Source: Vicinamibacteria bacterium (GTDB taxonomy: Bacteria > Acidobacteriota > Vicinamibacteria > Fen-336). From it: a stretch of 64,000 nt of DNA. Shown piece by piece: positions 33,656-64,000 of the stretch (within the stretch, counting starts at the first letter, position 1; each line of letters starts with the position of its first letter). The notes below the pieces were generated by a model. It saw only the letters and a program-made list of their open reading frames with translations, was not told the origin of the DNA and made no database searches. The translations under genes and the position numbers were made by a program. The stretch spans positions 17,858 to 81,857 of the forward strand of contig DASSJI010000156.1 of assembly GCA_035691285.1 (NCBI GenBank), in the 5' to 3' direction.

Positions 33656-33730
33656 ACGCGCCACGGAGACCCTGAGGACACGGAGCAGGAGGACGCCCCG
33701 CAAGGGCGTGTCTCCGCGGCGTCGCGATCC

Positions 33731-36097: not shown

Positions 36098-36104
36098 CGA
36101 CCTG

Positions 36105-36974: not shown

Positions 36975-37999
36975 AGCGGCGCAGGATCCGGGTCCTGGTC
37001 GTGGACGACTCGGCCTTCGTGCGCCAGGCCCTCACGCGGATGCTCTCGGGCGAGGCCGACATCGAGGTCGTCGGCCAGGCCGTCGACGGACGGGACGGGC
37101 TCGACAAGATCCGCGGCCTGCACCCGGACGTGGTCACCATGGACGTCCAGATGCCGCGCATGGGCGGCCTCGAGGCGCTGGCGGAGCTGATGGCCCAGAA
37201 CCCGGTGCCGGTGTTGCTGCTGTCGTCCCAGACCCGCGAGGGGGCGGAGGTCACGCTGCGGGGCCTGGAGCTCGGCGCCCTCGACTTCGTGGACAAGTCG
37301 CGGGTGCAGGGGAACATGAACCTTCTCAACCTGGCCGAGGAGCTCAAGGCCAAGATCCGCGCCATCGCGGGCGTCCACGTGCCCCGGCGGGCCGCCGACG
37401 AACGCCCGCTGCCGGTGCTGCCGCGCAAGGCGCGGGCCGACGTGGTGGTCATCGCCACCTCGACGGGCGGGCCGCCGGCGCTCCAGGCCATCCTCCCGCG
37501 GCTGCCTCGCGCGCTGCCCTCGGCTGTGCTGGTGGTCCAGCACATGCCCGTGGGCTTCACGCGCTCGCTGGCCGAGCGCCTGTCGACCCGCAGCGAGCTG
37601 CCGGTGCGAGAGGCCGAGGACGGAGAACCCGTGGAGCCCGGCCTGGTGCTCGTGGCGCCGGCGGGCAAGCACACGAAGGTGCGCCGGCGCGGGGCGCTGG
37701 TCAGGGTCGTGCTGGACGACGAGCCGAAGCACGCGCTGCACCGGCCCTCGGCCGACGTGCTGATGGCCACGGTGGCCCGCGTCTACGGCTCGCGGGCGCT
37801 GGGCGTGGTGCTGACCGGGATGGGCTCCGACGGCACCGAGGGGCTCCGGGCGATCCGGGAGCACGGCGGGCGCACCCTCGCCGAGGCCGAGGAGAGCTGC
37901 GTGATCTACGGGATGCCCAAGTCCGCCGTCGAGGCCGGCGTCGTGGACGAGTCGGTGCCCCTCGAGCGCATGGCCGAGGCGATTCTCGCGGCGGTATAG
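36971..37999 (+). CDS. cheB: chemotaxis methylesterase CheB (REC + CheB_methylest)
   Basis: VVIATSTGGPPAL and GMGSDG motifs. ATGA overlap with cheR. Confidence 0.9.
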   Translation: MKRRRIRVLVVDDSAFVRQALTRMLSGEADIEVVGQAVDGRDGLDKIRGLHPDVVTMDVQMPRMGGLEALAELMAQNPVPVLLLSSQTREGAEVTLRGLELGALDFVDKSRVQGNMNLLNLAEELKAKIRAIAGVHVPRRAADERPLPVLPRKARADVVVIATSTGGPPALQAILPRLPRALPSAVLVVQHMPVGFTRSLAERLSTRSELPVREAEDGEPVEPGLVLVAPAGKHTKVRRRGALVRVVLDDEPKHALHRPSADVLMATVARVYGSRALGVVLTGMGSDGTEGLRAIREHGGRTLAEAEESCVIYGMPKSAVEAGVVDESVPLERMAEAILAAV

Positions 38000-38014
38000 A
38001 ATTCGGTCTCTCCG

Positions 38015-39778: not shown

Positions 39779-39813
39779 GCCCGCCCTGCGGGGGCGAGGA
39801 AGGGGGGGCTTGA

Positions 39814-39821
39814 TATAGAAT
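39814..39821 (+). promoter_or_regulatory. TATAGAAT -10-like box 18 nt upstream of the GAF gene
   Basis: gcttgaTATAGAATcc. Confidence 0.2.
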
Positions 39822-39838
39822 CCCCGGCCGAAGAGCGT

Positions 39839-40639
39839 ATGGCGAACCCCGACGACCCCCGCAAGAGCCAGGACTTCTTCTCGATCTTCACCAAGGCCAA
39901 GGAGTTCACCGAGGAGCTGCTCAAGGAAAACGAGCGGCTGCGCTTCCGCATCGCGCAGCTCGAGAGCAGCCCCGGACCGGTCGGGGGCGAGGCCGGGGAG
40001 CTCCAGCAGCGCGTCAAGGACCTGGAGACGAAGCTCCAGGAGATGGAGAAGCGCTTCAAGCGCGTCGAGGCCGAGAACAAGGAGTTCGCCGACCGCTACC
40101 TCGAGATCGAGGAGCAGAACAACAACCTGGCGAACCTCTACGTCGCCTCCTACCAGCTCCACTCCACCCTGGACTACAAGGAGGTCGTGCGCATCGTCCA
40201 GGAGATCGTGATCAACCTGATCGGGGCCGAAGCCTTCCACGTGTTCGTGCTGAACGAGAAGACCGGCAGCCTCGAGCTCGAGTCGAGCGAGGGCCAGACC
40301 GCCGGCCTCACCACGATCCCGATCGGCCAGGGCAAGATCGGCGGCGCCGCCGCCTCTGGCGAGAACTACTTCGCCGACCACGTCGCCACCCGGGAGGCCG
40401 CTCCCTTCGACGAGCCGCTCGCGGTGATCCCGCTCAAGATCAAGGACAGCGTGATCGGCGTGATCTCGATCAACAAGCTGCTCGTGCAGAAGACCGCCTT
40501 CAACGCCATGGACTACGAGCTGTTCACGCTCCTCGCGGGGCACGCCGCCACGGCGATCTTCTCCTCGAAGCTCTACTCGCTCTCGGCGAGGAAGCTCACG
40601 ACCCTCCAGGGCTTCCTCGACATGATGAAGCAGAAGTAG
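39839..40639 (+). CDS. coiled-coil + GAF domain protein
   Basis: N-terminal heptad-rich segment (LKENERLRFRIAQLE ... KDLETKLQEMEKRFKRVEAENKE), then a GAF fold (FHVFVLNEKTGSLEL ... VIGVISINKL). Confidence 0.7.
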   Translation: MANPDDPRKSQDFFSIFTKAKEFTEELLKENERLRFRIAQLESSPGPVGGEAGELQQRVKDLETKLQEMEKRFKRVEAENKEFADRYLEIEEQNNNLANLYVASYQLHSTLDYKEVVRIVQEIVINLIGAEAFHVFVLNEKTGSLELESSEGQTAGLTTIPIGQGKIGGAAASGENYFADHVATREAAPFDEPLAVIPLKIKDSVIGVISINKLLVQKTAFNAMDYELFTLLAGHAATAIFSSKLYSLSARKLTTLQGFLDMMKQK

Positions 40640-46850: not shown

Positions 46851-49451
<2,601 letters not shown>

Positions 49452-49473
49452 CGGCAAACGCCCTCCGCACAAG

Positions 49474-49502
49474 AATATAGACCATGAGCGTCTAATTGTC
49501 AA
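49474..49502 (-). promoter_or_regulatory. near-consensus sigma70 promoter for clpB (TTGACA, 17-nt spacer, TATATT)
   Basis: On the minus strand, -35 at 49497..49502 and -10 at 49474..49479. Predicted TSS about 15 nt upstream of ATG 49451. Confidence 0.5.
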
Positions 49503-49528
49503 TAGAAATGAGTCTAATCATGAATAGA
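49490..49528. promoter_or_regulatory. tandem 17-bp near-palindromic repeats (GTCTAAT-N4-AATAGA, twice, 5-bp gap) overlapping the clpB -35
   Basis: Copies at 49490..49506 (gtctaatTGTCaataga) and 49512..49528 (gtctaatCATGaataga), in the clpB-cysK divergent region. Candidate operator. Confidence 0.35.
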
Positions 49529-49548
49529 CGGTCGCGCAGGTCTTCCCG

Positions 49549-49556
49549 TATAGAAT
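49549..49556 (+). promoter_or_regulatory. TATAGAAT -10-like box 25 nt upstream of cysK
   Basis: ccgTATAGAATcgc. GGAGG SD before ATG 49582. Confidence 0.25.
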
Positions 49557-49581
49557 CGCGGGGCTTCCAAGGGAGGTCGGC

Positions 49582-50520
49582 ATGATCCACGAGAGCATCC
49601 TCGGCACCATCGGAAACACGCCGGTGGTTCGCATCAACCGGCTGGCGCCGAAGCACACCACGATCTACGTGAAGTGCGAGGCGTTCAACCCGATGAGCTC
49701 GGTGAAGGACCGCCTGGCCATCGCGATGATCGAGGACGCCGAGCGCCGCGGCACGTTGAAGCCGGGGCAGACCGTGGTCGAGCCGACCTCGGGCAACACA
49801 GGGATCGCCCTCGCCATGGTGTGCGCGGCCAAGGGCTACCCGTTCGTGGCCGTCATGGCCGACAGCTTCAGCGTGGAGCGGCGCAAGCTGATGAAGGGCC
49901 TGGGCGCGAAGGTCGTGCTGACACCCGCCGCCGAGCGGGGTTCCGGCATGGTCAAGAAGGCGGAGGAGCTGGCGAAGAAGAATGGCTGGTTCCTGCCCCA
50001 GCAGTTCGAGAACCCCTCGAACCCCGAGTACCACCGCAACACCACCGGCCCCGAAATCCTGCGCGATTTCGCCGGCAAGCGCCTCGACTACTTCGTGAGC
50101 GGAATCGGGACCGGGGGGACGATCACCGGAGCCGGAGAGATGCTCAAGAAGGCACGGCCGGACATCAAGATCGTCTACACCGAGCCCGACGTGGCGCCCC
50201 TCGTGACGAAGGGCGAGTTCAAGCCGCACAAGATCCAGGGCTGGAACCCGGACTTCGTGCCCGCCGTGTTCAACCGCAGCGTCTACGACGAGGCGGTGCT
50301 GGTGGGCGAGGTCGAGGCCCGCGATGCAGCACGCGCGCTCGCCTTCAAGGAGGGCATCTTCTGCGGCATCTCTTCCGGAGGCACCTTCGCCGCTGCGCTG
50401 AAGGTGGCCCAGAAGGCGGCCGAGGGCTCGGTGATCCTCGCCATGCTGCCCGACACCGGCGAGCGCTACCTGACGACGTTCCTGTTCGAGGGGATCACCG
50501 AGGAGTCGGACGCGGTCTAG
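49582..50520 (+). CDS. cysK: cysteine synthase A (O-acetylserine sulfhydrylase)
   Basis: PLP-lysine motif SSVKDR, and GTGGT. Confidence 0.95.
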   Translation: MIHESILGTIGNTPVVRINRLAPKHTTIYVKCEAFNPMSSVKDRLAIAMIEDAERRGTLKPGQTVVEPTSGNTGIALAMVCAAKGYPFVAVMADSFSVERRKLMKGLGAKVVLTPAAERGSGMVKKAEELAKKNGWFLPQQFENPSNPEYHRNTTGPEILRDFAGKRLDYFVSGIGTGGTITGAGEMLKKARPDIKIVYTEPDVAPLVTKGEFKPHKIQGWNPDFVPAVFNRSVYDEAVLVGEVEARDAARALAFKEGIFCGISSGGTFAAALKVAQKAAEGSVILAMLPDTGERYLTTFLFEGITEESDAV

Positions 50521-52205: not shown

Positions 52206-53024
52206 ATGGATCGCCTCGCCAAGACCCGCGCGCTCTTCGGAGCGCCGCGCGCCCTCGTCGGCGTCATCCACCTGCCCGCGCTCCCGGGGGCCCCGAAGTC
52301 GCAGCTCGGCGTGCGGGCCATCGCCGAGGCCGCGGCGGCCGAGGCCCTGCTCTATCGCGACGCCGGCTTCCACGCCGTGATGATCGAGAACATGCACGAC
52401 CGGCCCTATCTCCCACGGGCGGCAGGGCCGGAGATCGTGGCCGCCATGGCCGTGACCGGGCGCGAGGTGCGGCGCGCGGCCGGCCTGCCCCTGGGCGTGC
52501 AGGTCCTCGCGGGCGCGAACCGCGCGTCGCTGGCCGTGGCCCACGCCTGCGGCGGGGCCTTCGTCCGGGTCGAGGGCCTCGTGTTCGCGCACGTCGCCGA
52601 CGAAGGCCTCATGACCGCCGACGCCGGCGAGCTGCTTCGCTACCGGCGTGCCATCGGCGCCGAGGGCGTCCGGATCCTGGCCGACGTGAAGAAGAAGCAC
52701 TCCGCCCACGCCATCACCGCCGACGTGGATCTCGTGGCGACGGCCCACGCGGCCGAGTTCTTCCTGGCCGACGGCGTCGTCGTCACCGGGCCGGCGACGG
52801 GGCGCGCGGCCGAACCCGCCGAGGTCCGCGCGGTGGCGGCCGCTGCCTCCGTTCCGGTCGTCGTCGGATCGGGCGTCACGCCCCAGAACCTCTCGGACTA
52901 CGTGGACGCCGACGCCTTCATCGTCGGCTCCTCCCTGAAGTTCGACGGGCTCTGGTCGAACCCCATCGAGCCCGAGCGCCTGGCGGCGCTGCGGCGGGCG
53001 TTCGAGACGCTCCCGCCGCGGTGA
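52206..53024 (+). CDS. BtpA/SgcQ-family TIM-barrel protein
   Basis: LVGVIHLPALPG ... GFHAVMIEN ... pattern typical of PF03437. Confidence 0.7.
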   Translation: MDRLAKTRALFGAPRALVGVIHLPALPGAPKSQLGVRAIAEAAAAEALLYRDAGFHAVMIENMHDRPYLPRAAGPEIVAAMAVTGREVRRAAGLPLGVQVLAGANRASLAVAHACGGAFVRVEGLVFAHVADEGLMTADAGELLRYRRAIGAEGVRILADVKKKHSAHAITADVDLVATAHAAEFFLADGVVVTGPATGRAAEPAEVRAVAAAASVPVVVGSGVTPQNLSDYVDADAFIVGSSLKFDGLWSNPIEPERLAALRRAFETLPPR

Positions 53025-53923
53025 GCCCGGACCTCGTCGTCCTCGGCAACCTGCTGGTCGACGACGTGGTCTTTCCCGACGGCCGCACGCGCTTCGCGCA
53101 GCCGGGTGGCGCCTGCCTCTACCTCGCCCTGGGCGCCGCCCTCTGGGGGCTCGAGGTCGGGATCGTCTCGGTGATCGGCGACGAATATCCGGCGGCGACC
53201 CTCGAGGCCCTCCGTACGCGCCGCGTCCACCTCCAGGGAACTCGGCGGCTGGGCGGGCCGGGGCTCCGGACGTGGCTCCTCTACGAGGGCGCGCGGCGCC
53301 GCGTGGTGCATCGCCTCGAAGGCCCGAGCCACGCAGAGGTGTCGCCTGCGCCGGCCGACGTCCCCGAGGCCTGGCGCTCGGCGCGAGCCTTCCACCTCGC
53401 GCCGATGCCGCTCGAGGTCCAGGCCCTGCTCTCGGACGCGATCGGGAGCTGGACGGGGGCCTCCCTCTCCGTCGATCCGTACGAGCTCTTCACGCCGACG
53501 TCGCTCCCCGCCCTGGAGCCGCTCCTGGCGCGGGTCGATGCGCTGTTCCTGAGCGAGGACGAGCTGGAGTTGGGCCGGCCAGGGCGGCGCGAGGACGAGC
53601 TGGGAGGCCTGCTTCGGGGCCGCCTGCAGGCCATCGCGTTCAAGCGCGGAGCCCGCGGCGGAGTGCTGGCCCGCGCCGGCCGCTTCCTCGAGTGGGCGCC
53701 GCGGGCGACCGAGGTGGCCGACCCCACGGGCGCCGGCGACGCCTTCGCCGCGGGCGTGCTCGCCGGCTGGCTCCGGGGCGAGCCCGACGAGAGGGCGCTC
53801 GCGCGCGGCGTCGTGACGGCCAGCTTCGCGATCGAGGCCTGGGGAGCGGATGGCCTGCTGCGCGCCACGCCCGACGCGGCGGAAGGGCGCCTCGCGGAGT
53901 GGTTCCCTCCGGTGGACGCGTGA
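53021..53923 (+). CDS. PfkB-family carbohydrate/nucleoside kinase (pseudouridine kinase-like by context)
   Basis: DPTGAGDAF anion-hole motif and an N-terminal GG motif. Overlaps the btpA stop by 4 nt. Confidence 0.75.
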   Translation: MSPDLVVLGNLLVDDVVFPDGRTRFAQPGGACLYLALGAALWGLEVGIVSVIGDEYPAATLEALRTRRVHLQGTRRLGGPGLRTWLLYEGARRRVVHRLEGPSHAEVSPAPADVPEAWRSARAFHLAPMPLEVQALLSDAIGSWTGASLSVDPYELFTPTSLPALEPLLARVDALFLSEDELELGRPGRREDELGGLLRGRLQAIAFKRGARGGVLARAGRFLEWAPRATEVADPTGAGDAFAAGVLAGWLRGEPDERALARGVVTASFAIEAWGADGLLRATPDAAEGRLAEWFPPVDA

Positions 53924-54867
53924 TTCCAGGCCTTCAGGTCGCGCGCGACGTCGCGACGGCCCTCTCCGCCGGCCACGCCGTCGTGGCGCTCGAGACGACG
54001 CTGGTCACCCACGGCTTTCCGCGCTCGGAGGGCCTGGAGCTGGCCCGAGTCCTCGAGGCGGAGGTGCGCGAGCGGGGCGCCGTCCCGGCGACGATCGGCG
54101 TCCTCGGGGGCGCGCTGCGTGTCGGGCTCACGGCGAACGAGCTCGAGCGGCTGGCGGCAGGGCACGCGGAGAAGCTCGGTCCCTCGAACCTCGCGGCGCG
54201 CATCGCCTCGGGCCGGCCCGGCTCCACGACCGTCGGGGCGACGTTGATCGCCGCCCACGCGGCAGGGATCCGCGTGTTCGCCACGGGCGGCATCGGCGGC
54301 GTACACCGGGGAAGCGCGTTCGACGTGTCGGCCGACCTCCTGGCCCTCTCGCGCCACCCGGTCGCGGTCGTGTGCTCGGGGGCCAAGGCCGTCCTCGACC
54401 TGCCGCGCACCCGCGAGGCGCTCGAAGCCCTCGGCGTGCCGGTGCTGGGCTTCGGGACCGACGAGGTGCCTGCGTTCTACAGCCGCCGCAGCGGCCTCCC
54501 GGTGGACGCCCGCTTCGACTCGCTCCAGGAGCTCTCCCGGGCCGTGACCACGCACCTCGCCCTCGGGACGGGAGCCGGCGTGCTGATCTGCAACCCGGTT
54601 CCGGCCGAGGAGGAGCTGGACGCGGCGGCCTGCGAGACGGCCCTGGCCGAATCCCTTGCCCTGGCCGAGTCCCGCGGCGTGACCGGCCGGGACGTGACGC
54701 CCTTCCTCCTCGAGGAGCTGCGTCGCCGCACGGGCGGCAGGAGCCTGCGGGCCAACAAGGCCCTCCTCGTGTCGAACGCTCGTTTGGCGGCGAGCCTGGC
54801 CTCGGGGCTGTGCTCCGCGTCACACGGCCGCGGTGATGCTATTGACGACGCGATGAACCGACCTTAA
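53920..54867 (+). CDS. psuG: pseudouridine-5'-phosphate glycosidase (IndA/YeiN family)
   Basis: In-frame GTG overlapping the pfkB stop (GTGA). VVALETTLVTHGFP ... GGIGGVHRG motifs. Confidence 0.85.
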   Translation: MIPGLQVARDVATALSAGHAVVALETTLVTHGFPRSEGLELARVLEAEVRERGAVPATIGVLGGALRVGLTANELERLAAGHAEKLGPSNLAARIASGRPGSTTVGATLIAAHAAGIRVFATGGIGGVHRGSAFDVSADLLALSRHPVAVVCSGAKAVLDLPRTREALEALGVPVLGFGTDEVPAFYSRRSGLPVDARFDSLQELSRAVTTHLALGTGAGVLICNPVPAEEELDAAACETALAESLALAESRGVTGRDVTPFLLEELRRRTGGRSLRANKALLVSNARLAASLASGLCSASHGRGDAIDDAMNRP

Positions 54868-54898: not shown

Positions 54899-56911
54899 GT
54901 GTCGTTCCTTCCGCCCCTCCCGCCGCGCCGCACAGGCGCACTCCCGATCCTCCTGTGCGTGTCCCTCGCCGCCGCCCTTCCGGCCGACGCCGGGCGGGCG
55001 GGCGCCTGGCTCACCTACTGGGACTTCGACCGCGGGCAGCAACGCCTCGCCAGCGCGCCGAGCCTCTTCGACGACGTGTTCTTCTTCGCGTTCGAGCTCG
55101 GGCCCGATGGGCGTCCGGCCGTGGCGCGGGCGAGCCTCCCGCTCAAGGCGGCGGTGAGCGCCGTGCGCGGGCGCGGGGCCCGTGCCTGGATGACGGTCGT
55201 GAACGACACGCGCTCCGCCGACGGCAAGGCCACCTTGAAGGATGCCGCGGCGATCCAGCGCATGCTCGCGGACGCGGAGGAGCGCGCTGCGCATCGCCAC
55301 GCGCTCGTGGAGCTCGCCGCTCTCCACGGCTTCTCCGGGGTCGACGTCGACTACGAGAACCTGCTCGTGGAGGACCGCGACCGCTTCAGCGACTTCATCC
55401 GCGAGCTGCGAGGAGACCTCGGAGCCCGAGGCCTCGAGCTGTCCGTGACGGTCCAGCCCAAGCGGCAGGAGAGCCGCTCGACGGGCCCCGGTGCCGCCGA
55501 CTGGGCCGCGCTGTGCCGGTCGACCGACCGCCTCCAGATCATGCTGTACAACCTTCACAACGCCCGGACGCCGCCGGGGCCGGTCACCGCGCCGGGCTGG
55601 TTCTCCGAGGTGCTCGCGTTCGCCCGAGGCCAGTGCGGGGAGGCGACGGTCGTCCCGGTCCTCAAGCTCGGGGCCATGGATTGGGGGCCGCAGGGCATGA
55701 AGGAGCTGCAGCACGCCGAGGTGGCGGCGCTGCTCGAGATGTACGGACCGCGGCTCGGCCGCGAGCCCGAGGGCGCAACGCCGTATTTCCGTTACGACGG
55801 GCGCGACGGCGCCCACACGGTCTACTTCGAGGATGCCCAGAGCATCCTCGCCAAGGTTGCGGCCCTCGAACGACTCGGGTACGACGACGTGGTTCTCTGG
55901 AGCCTCGGCCGCGAAGACCCGGCTCTCATCCCCGAGCTCCAGGCCCGCAAGGGCCCCGGGATCTCATCCTCTTCGACTTCACCTTCGACAGCGGCCGGCG
56001 TGGCCGACGAGAAGGCTCTCGCCGTGCTCGCCGAGCAAGAGGCGCGCTTCAGTCCCGACGCCCCATCGCATCCGGAGACCCCCGTGCCCCGCACAGTCCC
56101 GACGCTCTTCGCATCCGCCCTGGCGCTGGTCGGCCTGCCCGTCGCCCTTGCGCTCGCCACCCCGGCCGCCACCGTGACTTCCCCCTTTCTCTACACCTTC
56201 AACTCGAGCTCCGAGCTCGAGGAGGCGGGCTCCATGTCCGAGAGCGAGAGCCCCTACTTCTGGCTCAGCTCCGGCGGCCGCTTCTACACGGGCGGCATCG
56301 GCGAGACGGTCCACGCTTCGCTCCCGACGAACGACTACTGGCGCCTGCTGTACGCCAAGAACAACCCCCTCGACACCGACAACGGCTATCACCCGCAGAA
56401 CGTCTTCCGCCTGGTCACGCGCAGCCGCTGGGGCAACGCGCGCCAGCAGGTCTACTTCCGCATCGCCAAGGACAACCTGAGCGCGAGCCCCAACCGGGCG
56501 GCCTCGAACGGCGTGCTGCTGTTCAACCGCTACAAGGACGAGAACAACCTCTACTACACGGGCGTCCGCGTGGATGGCGCCGCCGTGATCAAGAAGAAGA
56601 TCGCGGGCAAGTACTACACGATCGCGTACAGGAAGATCTTCCCCGGGGCGGCCTACGACCGCGTCACGAACCCCAGCCTGCTGCCCAAGAACGTGTGGAT
56701 GGGCCTCACCGCCGAGGTCCTCAACAGGAGCGACGGCAGCGTGCGCCTCCGCGTTCACGTCAATCAGGGCGACGGCGTGTGGGCGCTCGTCTTCGACGTC
56801 CTCGACGACGGCCGCTACGGCGGAGCGCCCTTCGCCCAGACCGGCTACGGCGGCCTGCGCACCGACTTCATGGACGTCGACTTCGAGAACTACCTCTTGA
56901 AGGCGCTCTAG
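54899..56911 (+). CDS. secreted GH18 glycoside hydrolase fused to a C-terminal domain of unknown function
   Basis: GH18 catalytic motif FSGVDVDYENL (DxDxE). Ser-rich linker and an internal hydrophobic stretch TLFASALALVGLPVALALATPAA, then a roughly 280-aa K/Y/N-rich domain. Confidence 0.7.
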   Translation: MSFLPPLPPRRTGALPILLCVSLAAALPADAGRAGAWLTYWDFDRGQQRLASAPSLFDDVFFFAFELGPDGRPAVARASLPLKAAVSAVRGRGARAWMTVVNDTRSADGKATLKDAAAIQRMLADAEERAAHRHALVELAALHGFSGVDVDYENLLVEDRDRFSDFIRELRGDLGARGLELSVTVQPKRQESRSTGPGAADWAALCRSTDRLQIMLYNLHNARTPPGPVTAPGWFSEVLAFARGQCGEATVVPVLKLGAMDWGPQGMKELQHAEVAALLEMYGPRLGREPEGATPYFRYDGRDGAHTVYFEDAQSILAKVAALERLGYDDVVLWSLGREDPALIPELQARKGPGISSSSTSPSTAAGVADEKALAVLAEQEARFSPDAPSHPETPVPRTVPTLFASALALVGLPVALALATPAATVTSPFLYTFNSSSELEEAGSMSESESPYFWLSSGGRFYTGGIGETVHASLPTNDYWRLLYAKNNPLDTDNGYHPQNVFRLVTRSRWGNARQQVYFRIAKDNLSASPNRAASNGVLLFNRYKDENNLYYTGVRVDGAAVIKKKIAGKYYTIAYRKIFPGAAYDRVTNPSLLPKNVWMGLTAEVLNRSDGSVRLRVHVNQGDGVWALVFDVLDDGRYGGAPFAQTGYGGLRTDFMDVDFENYLLKAL

Positions 56912-56932: not shown

Positions 56933-59900
56933 TCAGAACCGGACCTCCAGGGCGCCTCCGAAGCCCCAGCTCTCATAGCCCGGCGCGCTGCCGTAGCGCC
57001 CCTCGAGCCGGGTTCGCAGACGCTCTCCCCAGGCCTGGCCGGCGCGGCCCGTGAGGCTCACGGTGCCCCGCCGGCCATTCCGCTCGTCCTCGGCCAGGCC
57101 GAGGCCCACCTCGGTCTCGACCAGCCAGCCCGGATCCCAGCGCCGCTGGTAGGCGACGAGCCCCCGGAGCTGGCGCAGGGCCTCGGGGCTGTAGTAGAGG
57201 TCGCTGCGGAAGAGGGTGTCGCTCCAGGCCACTCCGGCGCCGAGGCCGAGCCCGTGCCAGGACCGCGGCCGCACCAGCAGCTTGCCCGAGAGGTCGAGGC
57301 GCTCGTTCGTGTCGTCGTAGCGTCCGATCGCTCCGTCGAGGACGCCCAGGAGGGACGATGTCAGCCGCACTGCGGCATGGCCCGCGTAGCTCTGGACCTG
57401 GAGGCCGCGCAGGCGCGCCCGCAGCGTCTCCACGTCCTGGATCCCGACGCGCCCGCGGAGCTCCACGCGGTCGCTCTCCAGCGCGACGCCCAGCCCCCAG
57501 CCGATGCTGCGCTCGAGGCCGTCGGGGGAGCGCTGTGCCACGCGTCCCTCGATGGTCCAATTCGAGAGCGGGCCGAGCCGCGCGGCCACCGACAGCTCGG
57601 GTCCCTCGAGGGAGGGCAGGCCGTCCTCGCTCAGCGCGAAGCGGCCCGCTCCCAGCGTGGCCTCGAAGCCTCCGAGCGTCCCGGTGTGGAGGAGGGCGCC
57701 CTGCCACAGGGTCTCGCGTCCGTCGGAGTCGTCGCTGAATTCGACGCGGGGCGCGAGACGGACGCGGTTCTCCCAGCGGATGCGCTGCGCGAGGGCCGGA
57801 TCGTCGCTGAGCTTCTTCGAGCCGAGGGTCTCCGCGATCTGAAGCTGCCGCTCGGCGGCGTCGGGCCGCCCGCGCTGCGCCTGGATCGCGGCGAGGTAGT
57901 AGGCCGCCTCGCCTCGCATGTGCGGTTCGTCCGCGGCGAGCCGCTCGAAGCTGGCGCGCGCCTGCGCGTACTCCCCCTGCCAGTAGTGGAAGCGGCCGCT
58001 CTGGGCCCGGGCCACCAGCTTCGGGTGGTGGAGCGCCAGGTGTCCGAGGAGGGCGTCGCCGTCCATGTCGCGGGGCACGCCGAAGCGCCGCAGCATCAGC
58101 CCGGACGGCAGGCCGGGACGAAGCTCGTTGTAGCCGCTGTCGTCCTGGACGAAGCCGAAGCGGAAGTAGCGCTTGAGCAGCTCCTGGTTGAGGTCGCTGG
58201 CCCCCGGCTCGTTGCCCACGTTCTCCTGGCCGGCCTCGGAGAACGGGAACGCGTAGCCGACGACCTGCAGACCCGACCTCCGCTGCTTCAGCTCCTCGAT
58301 GCTCGAGCGGTAGTCGGCGTCGACGCGGGCGGCGTATTCCTCCCACGACTCGGAGCGCTGCGCCGCCTCGAGCCATTGGCGGTTGACGAGGAAGCTCCCG
58401 GTCTGCTGGTCGCCGTCCACGGAGATCAGGTCGTGGGCGCGATGGCCGTGGCTCTGCAGGTCCCAGCGGCCGGTGGCAGCGAAACCCCCGATGCGCTTCC
58501 AGTCGGCGAAGAACGGGTGGCCGTCGAGGATGCGCGCCGTCGGCACGAACATCGTGGCCTTCATGCCGTAGCGCGCCAGGATCGGATCGGCCCGCTCGAA
58601 GGAGTCGATGCGGGCGTCGTCGAACGTGATCAGGATCGGCCGGGCCGGGAAGAGCTGTCTGCCGTCCAGGACCGCCGCCAGCTCGGCCACGGTCAGGGCG
58701 CTGTAGCCCGCTCTTTTGAGCGCGCGGAGCTGGGACTCGAACAGCGCCGCCGGCATCGAGGCGCTTCGCGGATGGTCGCCGAGGCCGTGGTACATGAGGA
58801 TGGGCACGTAGACCGTGCCTCGCGGCGGATCCACCACACGCTCGAGGGAGCGCTGCGCGTCGCCGTGCCGGCCCATGCCGTAGAGGACGCGGGCTTCCTG
58901 TCCCAGCCTCTCGTAGCCCTTCAAGAGCGGCTCCTTGCCCGAGCGGAGGGTGGCCAGCGCTTCGTCGTGGCGGCCCGTCTCGAGGGCCGTCTCGAAGCGT
59001 CCCCAGAACACGTCGCGCATGCCGGCGTGGCTCCTGCTCAGGGCCAGGAAGGCGGCGTAGGCGTCCCCGCCTCGGCCCGCCGCGCGATCGAGCTGGGCGG
59101 CGGCCAGGGCGAGGTCGAAACGGTCGGGGTGCCGCTGCCGGGCCTGCGTCAGCGTGGCCTGGGCACCCTCGAGATCGCCGCGCTTCTGTCGCAGCCGCGC
59201 CAGCTCCAGCCACGCGGCCACGCGATCCGGGAAGTGCCGCGTCAGGAGCGCGTACCACTGGATCGCCTCGCCGTCGCTGCCACGCTGGACGGCGTCGTCG
59301 GCCAGGAACTGCAGGAGCGGCTGCTTCGGACCCTCCGCGTCGAGGAGGCGGCGCGCCTCGGAGAGCGCCTGGTCGTACTGGCCCAGCTCGTAGAGGCTCT
59401 TCACCCAGTAGTACTCGGCTTTCGCGTCCCGGTGTCCGAGGTCGAGGACGCGTTTCCACTGGTCCTTGCCGCGGTCGAAGTCGTGGTACTGCATGAGCAG
59501 CTCGGCCCAGAAGAGCTGCGCGCCGAGGTCGTCGGGGCTTTCCTTGGCGACGGCCTCGGCCAGCGTGCGCGCCTCTCCGAACGCGCCGCTCCAGTGCAGG
59601 GCCTTCGCGAGCTTCAACCGCTGCTGGGGCTGCTTCGGGTCCAGGCGCAGGCTCGCGCGTGCCGACGTCACGGCGGAGGCGAAGTCGCCCACCTTGAGGT
59701 AGAGGTGGGTCAGCAGGTTGTGGGGCTCCGCCTGGTCGGGGTGCGCCGCGGCGTAGCGCGTCCAGACCTCCTTCGTCCAGTCGAAGCGATCCGCAGCCCA
59801 ATAGGCCCACCCCAGGTCACGCAGGGCATTGGTGTTCTTCGGATCGAGGCGGACCGCCTCCTTCAGCTCACGCTCGGCGGTCTCGATCTCCGAGGCCTGG

Positions 59901-61078
59901 TACGCGGCGCCGCCCTTGTGGGCGTGGAGGCGGCTGAGGGCGGCCCGAGTCTCGTCCGGGCTGCGCGAGGCCTTGAGCCGCGAGCTCAGATGCAGGATCC
60001 CCAGGTCGATCTGCTCGAAGCGGGCGAAGAGCCCCGCCACGCGGCGGGACCACTCGGCGTCGGCGTCCTCGAGGCGGAACAGCTCGTCGAGCCACAGGAG
60101 CGCGTCGTCTCTCCGCCCTTCCTCGAGGGCGATCTCGGCGAGATGGTAGGGGATCGCCGGCTGCCGCTCGGCCTCGGTCCACGCGCGGCCGTACATGGTG
60201 GCCGCCGTCTTGAGGTCCGCCTGCTCCAGGGCCACGTCGGCGATGTGGCGGTAGAGTGCGCTGCGGGCGGGGTCCAGGTCCAGTGCGGCCTTCCACGCCG
60301 CGCGGGCCTCGTCGGGCTCGCCGAGCTGGCGGTTCGCCCAGCCGAGGTTGATGCGGTATTGAGCGTTTCCAGGGTCGAGGCGGACCGCTTCGGCGTAGGC
60401 CGCCTTCGCGTCCTTGTAGTTGCGGCCCCCGTAGGCGCGATCCCCCCGCCGGGCCTCGTGGCGCGCGAGGCGCCGGGAGACGAGGTGGCCGTAGCCGGAG
60501 ACCCGGGGCAGCGCCCCGCGCAGCGCGGCCCGAGCCTCGTCCTCGCGGCCGTGCCGCTCGAGGAAGTCCGACAGCCGCAGCGCCGTCTGGAAAGACGGCG
60601 CCTGACGCAGGGCTTCCCTGAGGTGGCCTTCGGCCTCGCGCAAGCTGCCGAGCTGTTCGTAGGCGTCGGCGAGGCGCGTGCGGACGGCCGGCTGGCTCCC
60701 GTCGATCGCGAGGCTCCGGGCGAGGTCATCGGCCGCCTCCTTGAAGCGCCCGCTCGCCAGGTGGATGGCCGCGATCTCGTTGATCAGCTCCACGCGCCGC
60801 GGCTCCACCTTCAGCACGGTGCGCCACGTCGCGATCGCCTCCTGGTGGCGGCCGGACTTGTGATAGGCCCAACCCAGGTTCTGCCACGCCATGAGAAGGC
60901 CGGCGTCCTGCTCCGTCGCCCTCTTGAAGGCGGCGATCGCCTCGTCGTAGCGGCCTTCCTTGTAGAGGCGCGTGCCTCGGTCCAGGGCCTCCTGCCCGGG
61001 CGAGGCCGCGAGGACGGCTCGCGGCGGCGGCGCGAGCGCAACCATGACGACGAGGGCCATCAGGCGTCGCGGCTTCAC
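56933..61078 (-). CDS. exopolysaccharide export/modification fusion protein: signal peptide, TPR array, NodB-type polysaccharide deacetylase domain, TPR, C-terminal outer-membrane beta-barrel-like domain (PgaA/BcsC-type)
   Basis: TPR motifs across aa 25-745. Deacetylase core (PILMYHGLGD ... ILITFDDARIDSF ... MKATMFVPT) at aa 755-1000. C-terminal 280 aa of alternating strands ending GGALEVRF (beta-signal). Confidence 0.8.
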   Translation of the reverse strand: MKPRRLMALVVMVALAPPPRAVLAASPGQEALDRGTRLYKEGRYDEAIAAFKRATEQDAGLLMAWQNLGWAYHKSGRHQEAIATWRTVLKVEPRRVELINEIAAIHLASGRFKEAADDLARSLAIDGSQPAVRTRLADAYEQLGSLREAEGHLREALRQAPSFQTALRLSDFLERHGREDEARAALRGALPRVSGYGHLVSRRLARHEARRGDRAYGGRNYKDAKAAYAEAVRLDPGNAQYRINLGWANRQLGEPDEARAAWKAALDLDPARSALYRHIADVALEQADLKTAATMYGRAWTEAERQPAIPYHLAEIALEEGRRDDALLWLDELFRLEDADAEWSRRVAGLFARFEQIDLGILHLSSRLKASRSPDETRAALSRLHAHKGGAAYQASEIETAERELKEAVRLDPKNTNALRDLGWAYWAADRFDWTKEVWTRYAAAHPDQAEPHNLLTHLYLKVGDFASAVTSARASLRLDPKQPQQRLKLAKALHWSGAFGEARTLAEAVAKESPDDLGAQLFWAELLMQYHDFDRGKDQWKRVLDLGHRDAKAEYYWVKSLYELGQYDQALSEARRLLDAEGPKQPLLQFLADDAVQRGSDGEAIQWYALLTRHFPDRVAAWLELARLRQKRGDLEGAQATLTQARQRHPDRFDLALAAAQLDRAAGRGGDAYAAFLALSRSHAGMRDVFWGRFETALETGRHDEALATLRSGKEPLLKGYERLGQEARVLYGMGRHGDAQRSLERVVDPPRGTVYVPILMYHGLGDHPRSASMPAALFESQLRALKRAGYSALTVAELAAVLDGRQLFPARPILITFDDARIDSFERADPILARYGMKATMFVPTARILDGHPFFADWKRIGGFAATGRWDLQSHGHRAHDLISVDGDQQTGSFLVNRQWLEAAQRSESWEEYAARVDADYRSSIEELKQRRSGLQVVGYAFPFSEAGQENVGNEPGASDLNQELLKRYFRFGFVQDDSGYNELRPGLPSGLMLRRFGVPRDMDGDALLGHLALHHPKLVARAQSGRFHYWQGEYAQARASFERLAADEPHMRGEAAYYLAAIQAQRGRPDAAERQLQIAETLGSKKLSDDPALAQRIRWENRVRLAPRVEFSDDSDGRETLWQGALLHTGTLGGFEATLGAGRFALSEDGLPSLEGPELSVAARLGPLSNWTIEGRVAQRSPDGLERSIGWGLGVALESDRVELRGRVGIQDVETLRARLRGLQVQSYAGHAAVRLTSSLLGVLDGAIGRYDDTNERLDLSGKLLVRPRSWHGLGLGAGVAWSDTLFRSDLYYSPEALRQLRGLVAYQRRWDPGWLVETEVGLGLAEDERNGRRGTVSLTGRAGQAWGERLRTRLEGRYGSAPGYESWGFGGALEVRF

Positions 61079-62988
61079 GAGGCGGCTCCTTTCCGTGGCT
61101 CGCCGGGGGCCGGGCGCGCCGTGTCCCCGACGAGCCTCCTGCCGGCCGGCTCCACGAGCAGCCGGAAGCGGCGCCAGCGGGTCTGCTGGCTGTGCGCCCA
61201 GGACTCGATCTCCTGCCGCGCCTCCGGAGGCAGGCCGGTGGCGTCGATGCGCATTCCAGCGAAGCCTTGCTCGGCCACGAGGGCGAGCGCCTCGCCGAGG
61301 CGGGCCGCCCGCACCTCCGAGCCGCCGTCGGGTGAGAGCCGCAACGTCGGCAGGATCTCCCAGCCGTAGCGCCGGGCCAGGATCGCCAGGAGATCGCGGT
61401 CGAGGGGTTGCTCACGCAGGCCGTTGCGACCGGCCTGGAGCCACAGGGGCGAGAGCGCCGCGAGGCCGGGCGACTCGCGGATCGCGGACTGCACCTGCTC
61501 GGCGGACGGCCGGCCAGGCATCGGCCACGCCCGGTAATCGACCTCGGAGAAGCGGAGGTCGCGGACCGTGAGGCGCGCGGGCTCTCCGTCTCCCCAGACG
61601 ACGAGACCCACGGTCCCGCGGGACATGTCCGGCAGGTGTGCGGGTCGATCGGAGACGGGGCGGCCGTCCCACTCCACCCAGACGCCGGCTCCGCGCCTCA
61701 CGATCTTGAGGCGATGCGGGCGCCCCGGCTCGACGCGCGCTTCTGGAAAGCTCGCCAGGGTCTCGACCTGGCTCGCTGGCCGTCGGCGCTGCAGGTGCGA
61801 CGCGCGCCCGTCGCCGCCCCAGCGCCATTCCTCGGACAGGTCGGAGGATTGTTGAACGATCCAGAGCTGACCGCTGTCGATCCGTACCTGGGCTTCGAGG
61901 GCCCACTCGTCCGACAGCTGGCTCGCCGCGCGCCACACGTCGGCGCGGACGGGTCCCTCCACGACCAGGCTGTCTTCATCGAGGCGGGCCTCGCCGACCC
62001 CTGCGACCCATCGCCACGGCAGCAGCTCACCGGCGCCCTCGGGAGCCGCTCCGAGCGCCATGGCGACGCGCTTCCCGAGCGTGTCGGCGGACCAGCGCGG
62101 GGCGACCCGCATGCGCTTCAGGTGGTGCGGGTCCGACAGGCGGTCGTTCACGCCGAACAGGTCGTCCACGAAGGCGAGAGTGTGGAAGGTCGCGAGGGCC
62201 TCCTCGTGGGCGCTCGCCACCTCGGGGTCGAGGCTCGCGACGGCCACGTCCTTGAGCGGAGGAGCGTAGGCGAGCACCGGTCGTCCGACCTCCTCCTCCA
62301 GGGTGCCACGGGCCTCCTGCTGGTCGCGCAGCGCGCGCGCGGCGAACTCCGCGCCGCTCTCGGCGCGGTTCTCGCTCGGGAGCCATGCGCGGCGGACGAA
62401 GAATGGGCCCTCGCCGCCCTCGTCGTCGACGCGGATCGGGGTGTGGCCCAGGCGCCCGTGGGAGCCGATCTCCCACAGGCCGCTCGCCGCCATCCGGCGC
62501 AGCCGCGGCCAGTACAGGAAGAACGGATCGCGCCGCTCTTGTCGCTCCGTCATCACGAACATCGCCGCCGGCCACTCGAGCTCGCGCAAGACCGGGTCGA
62601 CCGCGTCGGCGGTGGACAGGTAGCCGTGGTCGAAGGTGAGGACCAGGGAGCGCGCCGGCAGCGCGTCGAGCTCGCCGCGATAGAACCGCGCCAGGGTCTC
62701 GAGTCCGATGGCCTGGAAGCCGGCGCTGCGGAGAGCGAGGAGCTGCTCCCGGAGCAGCCCGCGGTCCACGTGCCGGATGTCCACGTCCTCGACCACGCGG
62801 TCGTACGCCAGCGCCAGGATCAGCGGGTCCGCGACGCCCGTCTCGGGGACGGAGGCGAGCACGGGCCGGTAGGCCCAGTAGTGCCAGAAGATCGTCGCCG
62901 CGCCGGCCAGCGTCAGGAGCGTCAGCCAGGCGACGGCGTCCTCCAGGAAGGTCCGGGTGCGGTAGGCGCGCCGGGTGCGCGGCGACAT
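61075..62988 (-). CDS. membrane-anchored polysaccharide deacetylase (PgaB-like: NodB domain + about 300-aa C-terminal domain)
   Basis: Internal ATG of ORF 61075..63684 at 62988, 2 nt after the GT2 stop. TM anchor AWLTLLTLAGAATIFWHYW. SLVLTFDHGYLSTADAVDPVLRELEWPAAMFVMT. Confidence 0.75.
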   Translation of the reverse strand: MSPRTRRAYRTRTFLEDAVAWLTLLTLAGAATIFWHYWAYRPVLASVPETGVADPLILALAYDRVVEDVDIRHVDRGLLREQLLALRSAGFQAIGLETLARFYRGELDALPARSLVLTFDHGYLSTADAVDPVLRELEWPAAMFVMTERQERRDPFFLYWPRLRRMAASGLWEIGSHGRLGHTPIRVDDEGGEGPFFVRRAWLPSENRAESGAEFAARALRDQQEARGTLEEEVGRPVLAYAPPLKDVAVASLDPEVASAHEEALATFHTLAFVDDLFGVNDRLSDPHHLKRMRVAPRWSADTLGKRVAMALGAAPEGAGELLPWRWVAGVGEARLDEDSLVVEGPVRADVWRAASQLSDEWALEAQVRIDSGQLWIVQQSSDLSEEWRWGGDGRASHLQRRRPASQVETLASFPEARVEPGRPHRLKIVRRGAGVWVEWDGRPVSDRPAHLPDMSRGTVGLVVWGDGEPARLTVRDLRFSEVDYRAWPMPGRPSAEQVQSAIRESPGLAALSPLWLQAGRNGLREQPLDRDLLAILARRYGWEILPTLRLSPDGGSEVRAARLGEALALVAEQGFAGMRIDATGLPPEARQEIESWAHSQQTRWRRFRLLVEPAGRRLVGDTARPAPGEPRKGAAS

Positions 62989-62990
62989 CG

Positions 62991-64000
62991 TCAGCGGGTC
63001 CCCCAGTGGTTCCGGCGCACCGTCAGGAGCGCGTAGTAGGTCTGCCAGACGAGGATCAGCATGTAGAAGAAGCTGAAGGCGACGCCGTAGACCCAGAGCC
63101 CGCTGCGCAGGCGGCCGAGGTAGTAGAGACCGTAGAGGGCCGACATCAGCGTCGCGCCGTAGATGTAGAGGAGCGAGACCTCCCCGACGCCGGCGAGCGG
63201 CAGCACGATCGCATTGCAGACCACGATCGGAGAGATGAGGGGGAACAGGCCGCCGAGGTAGAAGAAGAACGCCGCCATCGGGTGCCGGCGCCACATGAAG
63301 CGGGCGGCGAGGAACGTCTCGCGCACCCAGGACTTCTTCCAGCGGAGCTGCTGCTTGAAGAACTGCCGGTACGTCTCGGGGACCAGGGTGGAGCAGCTCG
63401 CCCGGGAGTCGTAGATCACCCGGTAGCGCCTGAGCATGAAGTTCGTCAGGCTGCGGTCGTCGCCGAAGGTAGCGGGCGTGCCCAGGAAGGACTGGCGCAG
63501 CCACACGTCGAGGATCTCCATGACGTAGCGGCGGCGGTAGGCGGCCAGGCAGCCGGAGCAGCAGGCCACGGCTCCGAACAGCGACTCGGCGGCCTTCACG
63601 ACGCGGAACGCGACGTAGTAGCGGACCTCCTGCATGCGCGTCAGGAAGTTCCTCTTCGCGTTCTGCACGTGGGCGTGGCCGCACACGGCCCCGACGTCCG
63701 GATCCTTGAAGCCCTGCACGATCCTGCGGATGGTGTCGCGGCGCACGAAGCTGTCGGAGTCCACGTACACGAGGATCTCGCCGCGCGCCGCGCGCGCCCC
63801 GGCCGCCATGCCGTGCCGCTTCCCGAGGTTGCGTCCGAAGTCGATGACGCGCAGGCCGGGATGGAGCTGCTGCGCGCGGCGCATCTCGGCCAGCGTCCCG
63901 TCCGTGGAGCCGTCGTTGACCGCGATGACCTCGAGCAGGTGGCTGGGGTAGTCCGAGGCATAGAGGCAGTGGATCGTTCGCGCGATGGACTTCTCCTCGT
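62991..64000 (-). CDS. family-2 glycosyltransferase, processive synthase type (PgaC/IcaA/NodC-like), partial; N-terminus beyond the window end
   Basis: The frame is open to 64000. My translation of 63885..64000 gives EEKSIARTIHCLYASDYPSHLLEVIAVNDGSTDGTLAEMRRAQQ. DxD in ILVYVDSDS; Q(Q/R)xRW in QQLRWKKSW; C-terminal TM helices. Confidence 0.8.
   Translation of the reverse strand, partial: EEKSIARTIHCLYASDYPSHLLEVIAVNDGSTDGTLAEMRRAQQLHPGLRVIDFGRNLGKRHGMAAGARAARGEILVYVDSDSFVRRDTIRRIVQGFKDPDVGAVCGHAHVQNAKRNFLTRMQEVRYYVAFRVVKAAESLFGAVACCSGCLAAYRRRYVMEILDVWLRQSFLGTPATFGDDRSLTNFMLRRYRVIYDSRASCSTLVPETYRQFFKQQLRWKKSWVRETFLAARFMWRRHPMAAFFFYLGGLFPLISPIVVCNAIVLPLAGVGEVSLLYIYGATLMSALYGLYYLGRLRSGLWVYGVAFSFFYMLILVWQTYYALLTVRRNHWGTR

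Follow-up and report, generated by a model that had tools for sequence, protein, structure and literature searches.

A candidate synthase-dependent exopolysaccharide locus of Vicinamibacteria whose TPR-porin exporter carries an embedded NodB deacetylase domain

Must the enzyme that modifies a secreted polysaccharide be a polypeptide separate from the porin that exports it, and, where the two are one protein, which polymer passes through? The question is raised by a locus at the end of a 64,000-nucleotide stretch of DNA (the window) from a Vicinamibacteria bacterium (assembly GCA_035691285.1, contig DASSJI010000156.1, positions 17,858 to 81,857). Three genes on its minus strand encode a family 2 glycosyltransferase (GT2), a membrane-anchored protein with a NodB-like domain (ORF2; ORF, open reading frame) and a 1381-aa protein (ORF3) that combines tetratricopeptide repeats (TPRs), a NodB de-N-acetylase domain and a beta-barrel, and a family 18 glycoside hydrolase (GH18) gene converges on them. 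A preliminary description of this DNA took the locus for a synthase-dependent exopolysaccharide system, which is borne out by the lineage of the processive GT2 and by the structural match of ORF3 to TPR-porins. We conclude that the locus probably directs synthase-dependent secretion of a partly de-N-acetylated polymer of N-acetylglucosamine (GlcNAc), most likely beta-1,4-linked and hence chitin- or chitosan-like. The locus is a real observation, and chance does not explain it.

Domain calls were based on a Pfam scan of the locus proteins, in which Glycos_transf_2, Polysacc_deac_1 and TPR profiles were all matched. In ORF3, many TPR families cover aa 30-700 and Polysacc_deac_1 covers aa 811-906. 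Relatives of the protein were gathered with its C-terminal 655 aa and aligned, and an AlphaFold (AF2) model of this fragment was then compared with the PDB using Foldseek. The model (mean pLDDT 92.1, pTM 0.81) runs from the end of the TPR array through a beta/alpha NodB domain and seven helices (aa ~1007-1103) to 16 consecutive beta-strands (aa 1107-1380), leaving about 100 aa, or three to four TPR-like helix pairs, between NodB and barrel. The modelled NodB fold coincides with the coordinates that had been proposed for it, 58079..58816, and its structural neighbours are de-N-acetylases of poly-beta-1,6-GlcNAc (PNAG), namely 4u10, BpsB (5bu6) and PgaB (4f9j/3vus), with E values of 5e-16 to 4e-13; phmmer against the PDB also returned BpsB (1e-12). 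The barrel matched PgaA (4y25; E 2e-12, target TM-score 0.74, 300 columns) as well as BcsC (9b8a and 6tzk) and PelB (9h80). The claim of a C-terminal outer-membrane barrel is thus upheld, and a soluble, non-barrel C-terminal domain is ruled out by the 16 modelled strands together with the porin matches. ORF3 ends in ...ALEVRF and its family consensus likewise in ...RF, and inspection of its signal peptide found no lipobox cysteine.

With E. coli pgaABCD as the reference set, PgaB was aligned with both NodB domains of the locus. Residues H55, D114, D115, H184 and H189 of PgaB, which we take to be the catalytic acid (H55), the base (D114) and the metal ligands (D115, H184 and H189), fall on H764, D820, D821, H877 and H882 of ORF3, so that the metal triad D821, H877 and H882 is present, and the catalytic residues are invariant or more than 90% conserved in the family alignments. 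These data support a catalytically complete, PgaB-type set of five residues and hence a predicted deacetylase; a degenerate embedded domain is ruled out by the conserved residue set in ORF3 and its family. Kinship with the Pga proteins does not extend to orthology. Among the curated NCBIfam equivalog models tested (TIGR03939 PgaA, TIGR03938 PgaB, TIGR03937 PgaC/IcaA and TIGR04242 NodC), ORF3 scored 53 bits against PgaB (cut-off 322), and its NodB domain is by this measure a domain-level relative of PgaB rather than a PgaB orthologue. Against PgaA it scored 40.5 bits (cut-off 366.65) in a match limited to TPR aa 41-168, and BLASTP with E. coli PgaA gave no significant match in the barrel. Because the barrel shows no sequence kinship and the PgaA cut-off is missed, ORF3 is assigned to the TPR-porin structural class and not to the PgaA orthologues; it has the signal peptide, the TPR array, the 16-strand barrel and the adjoining processive GT2 of that exporter class.

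A frameshift that joins two genes is ruled out as the source of the 1381-aa frame, since 26 independent cluster representatives (1211-1561 aa) are single chains of the same architecture and the DNA is identical in an independent assembly (L085, Logan SRR25158195). In a window of 71.5% G+C, the third-position GC of ORF3 is 0.90 and that of the GT2 gene 0.97, which identifies both as real coding frames. When the barrel alone was searched against 1.84 billion representative sequences, 53 representatives were found, 26 of them at E <=1e-10. The full-length relatives are nearly all 1240-1470 aa long with the barrel at the C terminus, and among ORF3 and 26 full-length relatives Polysacc_deac_1 was matched in 26 of 27 and TPR in all 27. 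Within reach of this search a barrel without an embedded deacetylase was never seen, and the 53 relatives included no protein of PgaA, BcsC or PelB length. Barrel and NodB domain are evidently inherited together, and the inner position of the deacetylase might couple modification of the polymer to its export.

The genes are tightly packed. The ATG of ORF2 lies 2 nt past the GT2 stop codon TGA, and the GTG start of ORF3 shares the sequence GTGA with the stop codon of ORF2; an AGGAG stands 8 nt 5' of this GTG. When ORF coordinates and junctions were re-read, the gene order, the strands, the 2-nt gap and the GTGA overlap all agreed with the preliminary description, as did the convergent GH18 gene (Pfam Glyco_hydro_18), whose stop codon is 21 nt from that of ORF3. 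Coordinates of the four genes and their parts are collected in Table 1.

Table 1. Genes and protein domains of the locus, in window coordinates
Feature	Coordinates	Strand	Basis or remark
GT2 synthase	62991..64000	-	C-terminal 335 of 436 aa; remainder past window end
ORF2, 637 aa, predicted inner-membrane-anchored periplasmic deacetylase paralogue, non-canonical active site	61075..62988	-	
ORF2 signal-anchor transmembrane helix (aa 12-39), basic RTRRAYRTR before it	62872..62955	-	AF2 helix, sequence
ORF2 NodB-like domain (aa 56-311)	62056..62823	-	PgaB alignment, profile-profile alignment, family counts
ORF2 beta-sandwich (aa 327-490), CBM66/lectin-like	61519..62010	-	Model comparison
ORF2 C-terminal alpha/beta unit (aa 496-612)	61153..61503	-	AF2 secondary structure
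ORF3, 1381 aa, exporter: signal peptide, TPR, NodB, TPR, 16-strand barrel	56933..61078	-	
ORF3 signal peptide (aa 1-25)	61004..61078	-	Sequence; predicted cleavage between MKPRRLMALVVMVALAPPPRAVLAA and S
ORF3 N-terminal TPR array (aa ~28-750)	58829..60997	-	Pfam TPR_19, TPR_16, TPR_2 and others, E down to 1e-50
ORF3 NodB de-N-acetylase domain (aa 755-1000)	58079..58816	-	Pfam Polysacc_deac_1, phmmer, AF2/Foldseek
ORF3 barrel-proximal TPR-like helices (aa 1007-1103)	57770..58060	-	AF2 fragment helices H281-377
ORF3 16-strand beta-barrel (aa 1107-1381), ending ...GGALEVRF	56936..57760	-	AF2, Foldseek
GH18 and domain X protein, 670 aa	54899..56911	+	Convergent with ORF3
GH18 domain (aa ~35-350, motif GVDVDYE)	55001..55948	+	Pfam
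Domain X (aa ~430-670 of the GH18 ORF)	56186..56908	+	Translation

ORF2 had been described as a second deacetylase, and its fold, its membrane anchor and its extra C-terminal domain stand. It matches Polysacc_deac_1 (2e-11), its AF2 model is well determined (pLDDT 87.8, pTM 0.85), and hhalign identifies the NodB domains of ORF2 and ORF3 as paralogues (E 3.5e-49). The canonical catalytic set does not stand. At the five PgaB catalytic positions, canonically H-D-D-H-H, ORF2 has D63, D120, H121, H177 and H182, and its family carries YD and TFDH where canonical enzymes have YH and TFDD: the position of PgaB H55 is Asp in 30 of 31 family members and that of D115 is His in 27. The metal positions H177/H182 are replaced by N, Q, A, M or Y or fall in a gap in about seven of the 31, and H121 by G or F in four. 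Against the PgaB model ORF2 scored 82 bits (cut-off 322). Its N terminus is a transmembrane (TM) helix, with no lipobox, and by the positive-inside rule would lie inside the cell, leaving the bulk of the protein in the periplasm. No GH153 domain was found in the C-terminal part, which consists instead of the beta-sandwich, a probable carbohydrate-binding module, and the small alpha/beta unit.

The origin of this altered protein is suggested by loci of the candidate phyla radiation (CPR), DPANN archaea and some Actinomycetota, where a synthase of this kind precedes one TM-NodB-beta-sandwich protein of ~505-590 aa. These proteins align with ORF2 end to end in hhalign (E 4e-59, ORF2 aa 6-483), which makes ORF2 the architectural orthologue of their canonical deacetylase; the match stops at aa 483, and the C-terminal alpha/beta unit is missing from them. 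Their sites are canonical H-D-D-H-H in 35 of 38 loci. We infer that ORF2 may bind the polymer at the inner membrane or hand it on from there. A doubtful alternative is that both NodB domains are active, with Asp63 serving as the acid and three His as the metal ligands of ORF2, so that the chain is de-acetylated twice (at the inner membrane and afterwards at the exporter), or in different patterns or on different substrates. The substitutions H to D and D to H do form a conserved, reciprocal-looking pair that is unlike random decay, most members keep D120, H177 and H182, and the fold is intact at high confidence. Set against this are the replacements of H177/H182 and of H121 listed above and the ORF2 orthologues of two related loci (L001 and L002) that no longer score Polysacc_deac_1. 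Moreover, the canonical site of nearly every sole NodB protein implies that canonical chemistry is needed, and in the present locus it would be supplied by ORF3.

The polymer was approached through the synthase. The DxD motif (DSD), QQLRW and the C-terminal TM helices previously read in the GT2 are confirmed, and GDDRSLT and a terminal WGTR are present as well. Its Pfam matches are Glycos_transf_2 (1e-27) and Chitin_synth_2 (3e-27). Against NCBIfam, the 335-aa fragment scored highest with NodC (174 bits, cut-off 550) and reached 131 bits with PgaC/IcaA (cut-off 422). The closest solved relatives are class I hyaluronan synthases (HAS; 121 bits), aligned over aa 160-436 through the C-terminal membrane region, and the phmmer alignment, which includes Xenopus HAS1 and Chlorella virus HAS, covers GDDRxLTN, QQxRW and WGT(R). 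The motifs GDDR/GEDR-x-LT, Q(Q/R)xRW and WGT(R/K) are typical of NodC and chitin synthases too. E. coli PgaC aligned with the GT-A domain only (32% over 259 aa); its motifs are TEDID and QRLRW, and WGTR is missing. Across related loci, all synthases at least 41% identical to this one have GDDR(S/A)LT and QQxRW, and all but one have WGTR (WATR in L069); Streptomyces-type GT2s, at 32-37% identity, lack both GDDR and WGTR. Homology thus places the GT2 in the NodC/HAS/chitin-synthase lineage and not with PgaC. Since this lineage is combined with two domains of carbohydrate esterase family 4 (CE4) and a conserved member of GH18, a family of chitinase type, a partly de-N-acetylated beta-1,4 GlcNAc polymer is favoured over PNAG. 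The preliminary description had allowed for a PNAG- or chitosan-like product; its GlcNAc character stands, and the synthase lineage and the GH18 narrow the choice towards a beta-1,4 chitin- or chitosan-like chain as the better guess.

A divergent PNAG system, in which the deacetylase domain of PgaB has been fused into PgaA, is an unlikely but real alternative. It would account for the top solved matches of both NodB domains (PgaB, BpsB and IcaB), for PgaA 4y25 as the top barrel match and for the partial NCBIfam hits to the PgaB, PgaA and PgaC models, and a contact between PgaA TPRs and the PgaB deacetylase is known (PMC9384988). It fits poorly, however, with a synthase that carries GDDRSLT, QQLRW and WGTR, aligns with HAS through the TM region where PgaC aligns in GT-A only, and scores higher with NodC than with PgaC. 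The locus also has no PgaD and no GH153 in ORF2, ORF3 has no sequence similarity to PgaA, and the curated pga cut-offs are missed widely. Furthermore, the conserved hydrolase is a GH18, while PMC5933820 names DspB (GH20) as the only earlier characterised PNAG hydrolase and defines GH153 for PgaB.

That the product is hyaluronan-like or another heteropolymer is very improbable, even with class I hyaluronan synthases as the closest solved relatives of the GT2. No UDP-glucose dehydrogenase was found in the cassette, in the called genes of L001, L002 and L004 or among those genes of the window that were checked in the surroundings; the conserved partners, a GH18 and two CE4 domains, point to GlcNAc-rich chains; and the top NCBIfam model is NodC, a chitin-oligomer synthase. 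More broadly, the genes checked adjoining the locus include none of the UDP-GlcNAc or UDP-GlcA pathways.

The full synthase gene and the DNA upstream of it were taken from the identical contig of L085, which extends 519 nt past the window end. There the synthase occupies 219-1531 (436 aa), and a stop codon lies 48 codons 5' of its start. A PgaD-like or cyclic di-GMP (c-di-GMP)-binding partner, which was looked for beyond position 64,000, did not emerge: the extension holds neither PgaD nor PilZ, the domain that c-di-GMP-gated systems such as those of BcsA and Alg44 have on or next to the synthase, and a pgaD-like gene is missing both from the operon and from the stretch that separates promoter and GT2 gene. 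Among relatives, the synthases of L001 and L002 have an N-terminal PilZ domain by Pfam, an N-extension of 95-140 aa is present in all 17 full diderm-type relatives examined, and both PilZ motifs, RxxxR and D/NxSxxG, occur in nine of these. The nearest relatives with full genes (L024, 80% identical, and L006, 79%) have the PilZ-like extension, and the synthase of this genome does not; it looks as if the extension, and with it the c-di-GMP receptor, was lost in this lineage. An exact sigma-54 consensus, TGGCAC-N5-TTGC (TGGCACGGGCGTTGC), lies at L085 109-123, ~96 nt 5' of the synthase start and ~411 nt past window position 64,000; by chance 0.01 such matches would be expected, and the 64-kb window contains none. 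At its end, the upstream gene encodes a helix-turn-helix of the Fis type (RAAEILGISLKTLYNRVNQYDRKVS; Pfam HTH_8, 25 bits). As far as motifs alone can tell, c-di-GMP gating may have given way to transcriptional control by sigma-54.

The GH18 protein comprises a signal peptide, the GH18 domain, a Ser-rich linker, a hydrophobic segment (aa ~410-435) and a C-terminal region that we call domain X. Its GH18 match (58.8 bits, gathering threshold 29.6; 9e-16) has as PDB relatives 5jh8 ('probable chitinase'), YdhD, 4s3j ('Cortical-lytic enzyme') and 4s3k ('Spore germination protein YaaH'). GH18s of the YdhD, cortical-lytic and YaaH type act on spore peptidoglycan. In 20 of 22 assessable related loci the gene immediately after that of the exporter encodes a GH18, mostly in convergent orientation, and G-x-D-x-D-Y-E (DxDxE) is kept in all 19 cassette-linked GH18 sequences examined. 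In the other synthase-dependent systems BcsZ, PelA and AlgL are the hydrolase or lyase. The same role is documented for the GH153 domain of PgaB (PMC5933820). By analogy, the GH18 would fit the part of a dedicated enzyme of this kind with a predicted substrate in the secreted polymer. The weakest alternative, that these are genes acting on peptidoglycan or the envelope rather than on a secreted polymer, or that an assembly error or frameshift produced the 1381-aa ORF, can draw on the GH18 relatives just named and on the peptidoglycan deacetylases that the passages of PMC5855634 on CE4 include in that family, but is scarcely credible given the translational coupling to genes for a processive GT2 of the membrane and a porin of 16 strands, the recurrence of ORF3 as one chain in 26 independent representatives and about 20 genomes, and the identical DNA in L085.

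Domain X (~240 aa) is highly conserved, has no Pfam match and no PDB sequence relative, whether searched as a single sequence or as a profile, and is marked by the stretches DTDNG, HPQNIFR, NLYY-G-RVDG-AVIKKK and GIRTDFMD. A profile search returned at least 2169 protein clusters, all labelled 'hypothetical', in which it typically stands alone in proteins of ~296 aa; named sources are few, and most are Patescibacteria. The copy in this Vicinamibacteria genome is 43-58% identical to CPR and archaeal copies, and in CPR and archaeal genomes the domain X gene adjoins the GT2-NodB pair. A relationship to the ORF2 beta-sandwich was rejected (hhalign probability 0.6%). GH18 and domain X are fused in one ORF in this genome and in L005 and L007; in other phyla the GH18 mostly stands alone. 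The hydrophobic segment at aa ~410-435 resembles the N-terminal anchor of stand-alone domain X proteins, and, should it span the membrane, GH18 and domain X would lie on opposite sides of it, an odd arrangement for two presumed periplasmic modules.

Taken together, a pathway for a chitin- or chitosan-like polymer can be proposed. The GT2 would polymerise the chain, presumably of GlcNAc, at the inner membrane and push it across. ORF2, facing the periplasm at that membrane, has the fold of a deacetylase and may receive or guide the chain. ORF3 would span the periplasm with ~720 aa of TPRs, and its embedded NodB domain would de-N-acetylate the chain just before it enters the 16-strand porin. The periplasmic GH18 would be the cognate hydrolase, taking the part played elsewhere by BcsZ, the GH153 domain of PgaB, PelA or AlgL.

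Several observations weigh against this proposal. The GT2 falls below every curated cut-off, that of NodC as well as that of PgaC. Both NodB domains and the barrel are, in the models, structurally nearest to the PNAG proteins PgaB and PgaA. The GH18 subfamily has solved members of the spore-peptidoglycan type, and the enzyme may act on something other than chitin. Most members of the ORF2 family retain D120, H177 and H182, with H121 as a gain, and an altered His-His-His metal chemistry is possible. Finally, every member of the cassette is known from metagenome-assembled genomes (MAGs), as sequences alone. The barrel is almost uncharged overall (36 acidic and 34 basic residues), as is the TPR array; this is uninformative and says nothing on the passage of a cationic polymer.

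In a scan of one genome per GTDB species, the full NodB-TPR-barrel match was found in ~25 MAGs; GT2, ORF2 and ORF3 stand in this order at 19 loci, which belong to nine phyla or more. ORF2 itself is 100% identical to a protein annotated in a Vicinamibacteria MAG, which identifies the source lineage. The cassette was found in Vicinamibacteria and other Acidobacteriota, Nitrospirota, Manganitrophaceae, Gamma- and 'Delta'-proteobacteria, Desulfobacterales, Verrucomicrobiia, Eisenbacteria, Holophaga and Nitrospinota, with divergent forms of the cassette in Elusimicrobiota, Omnitrophota and Pirellulales; the scan found no cultured isolate that carries it. In one set of loci (L025-L046 and L055, from Elusimicrobiota, Omnitrophota, Pirellulales and Verrucomicrobiota) the synthase is of the same type (47-57% identity), the middle gene has no similarity to ORF2, and the third gene encodes TPRs and NodB together with a barrel that has diverged beyond the reach of BLAST. 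This suggests that the role of ORF2 has decayed further or been replaced in loci of that type. The middle gene of L002 (399 aa) has no Pfam match. Loci of Streptomyces, Kitasatospora and Mycolicibacterium (L058, L071, L073, L075, L077 and L079-L082) carry a separate, possibly MatB-like GT2 subfamily, and those of Geodermatophilus, Blastococcus and an actinomycetotal MAG (L078, L083 and L084) a synthase of the GDDR and WGTR type.

How the cassette evolved can be sketched from this distribution. The ancestral form would have consisted of the GT2 and one canonical TM-NodB-beta-sandwich deacetylase, as retained in CPR, DPANN and some Actinomycetota. In diderms a NodB copy would then have moved into the TPR-porin, keeping the canonical chemistry, and the inner-membrane copy, ORF2, would have been altered. 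In its fullest form the idea is tentative, and we would put it no higher than a possibility worth pursuing: the locus may be the diderm form of a prokaryote-wide chitin/chitosan cassette (a NodC/HAS-like GT2, a CE4 deacetylase and often domain X, in CPR, DPANN, part of the Actinomycetota and no fewer than nine diderm phyla). In the diderm form, catalysis would have shifted from the inner-membrane deacetylase to the exporter, tying de-acetylation physically to transit through the porin and leaving ORF2 as a pseudo-enzyme or a binding hand-off factor. The locus might then be the first machine known to secrete chitosan from bacteria and, as a natural 'Rosetta-stone' fusion, a guide to the contacts inferred between TPRs and enzymes in the Pga and Pel systems.

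Elsewhere in the window, ~17 kb from the locus, a chemosensory-type gene run (~31358..40639, +) begins with a methyl-accepting chemotaxis protein with HAMP (31358..33655, +) and also includes a long HEAT-repeat protein (33656..36097), CheR (35748..36974), a DUF4388/PatA_N and receiver-domain protein (38000..39778) and a GAF protein (39779..40639). Directly upstream of the L001 cassette are genes for a PatA_N response regulator, a CheX/CheC-like protein and a GGDEF protein. A link between the run and the cassette is possible, though the distance in this genome is large. The stretch 5' of the GH18 gene (52206..54836, +) encodes a protein of the BtpA family (52206..53024), a sugar kinase of the PfkB type (53021..53923) and a product that lacks any Pfam match (53850..54836); farther out are a gene for a pyridoxal phosphate-dependent enzyme (49528..50520) and ClpB (46851..49517, -).

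If the polymer is beta-1,4-linked, the locus would represent a dedicated bacterial pathway for secretion of chitin or chitosan, of which we found no description in the literature searched. It would belong to abundant uncultured lineages of soil and groundwater (Vicinamibacteria, other Acidobacteriota, Nitrospirota and Manganitrophaceae), with a bearing on soil aggregates and on the amino-sugar pool of carbon and nitrogen. The synthase-deacetylase core in CPR and DPANN, together with the domain X family, points to an unstudied surface polymer of episymbionts. The pairing of a canonical NodB in the exporter with an altered NodB at the inner membrane offers a clean natural example of a duplication after which catalysis changed place. 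In known systems, biochemical work is still establishing where the periplasmic modifying enzymes sit with respect to TPR scaffold and porin; here the place of the deacetylase is fixed within one chain, ~100 aa below the barrel, and ORF3 is thus a single-chain target for cryo-electron microscopy and for study of the coupling of modification to export.

Among known systems, Streptomyces MatAB likewise pairs a GT2 with an extracytoplasmic CE4 domain, in the bifunctional MatB, and an antibody and dispersin B were the basis for assigning its product to PNAG (PMC5972031). Streptomyces loci differ in having no TPR-porin and are distant hits (GT2 34-37% identical); these loci, possibly of the MatB type, are ruled out as members of the GT2 family of this cassette by their lack of the GDDR and WGTR motifs. 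The 'bacterial chitin synthases' of Goncalves et al. (PMC5122149) are ruled out as a match by their DUF1501/DUF1800 context and their horizontal eukaryotic origin. With NodC, HAS and chitin synthases the GT2 shares GDDRxLT, QQxRW, WGT(R) and the C-terminal TM region; it differs from NodC in scoring below the cut-off (174 of 550 bits), in being tied to an export apparatus and in having relatives with a PilZ-like extension. BcsC and PelB resemble ORF3 in their TPR superhelix and 16-strand barrel (9b8a, 6tzk and 9h80). The TPRs of PelB dock the PelA deacetylase/hydrolase.

According to the preliminary description, the described pga, bcs, pel and alg systems have their TPR/porin exporter and their polymer-modifying enzyme on separate polypeptides. 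As a general statement this is not quite true, since the Bundalovic-Torma survey reports a BcsZ-BcsC fusion, in Zymomonas, besides GT-PgaB fusions; for deacetylases it holds, in that the fusion passages of that survey name no exporter-deacetylase fusion (PMC7112194). Neither a TPR-porin with an embedded deacetylase nor this cassette is described in the literature searched, from which subscription journals were mostly absent, and we found no account there of an exporter with a built-in canonical deacetylase for the known biofilm-polysaccharide systems. The BcsZ-BcsC fusion, as those passages present it (PMC7112194), is alike in joining a modifying enzyme to the porin protein and differs in that the present enzyme is a CE4 domain inside the TPR array near the barrel, not a terminal hydrolase, and in the class of polymer.

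The closest comparison is with PgaABCD and BpsABCD, which share with this locus an inner-membrane GT2, a periplasmic PgaB-type CE4 domain and an outer-membrane TPR protein with a 16-strand porin. The present locus differs from PgaABCD in having no PgaD, a NodC/HAS-type synthase, a separate GH18 and no significant sequence similarity to PgaA in barrel or TPRs. ORF2 is TM-anchored and not a lipoprotein, lacks GH153 and has a CBM66-like sandwich and a non-canonical site. The remaining difference is the deacetylase inside the exporter. In E. coli, the outer-membrane-proximal TPRs of PgaA bind the PgaB deacetylase domain and raise its activity (PMC9384988), and it is this contact between PgaA and PgaB that ORF3 has, in effect, made covalent.

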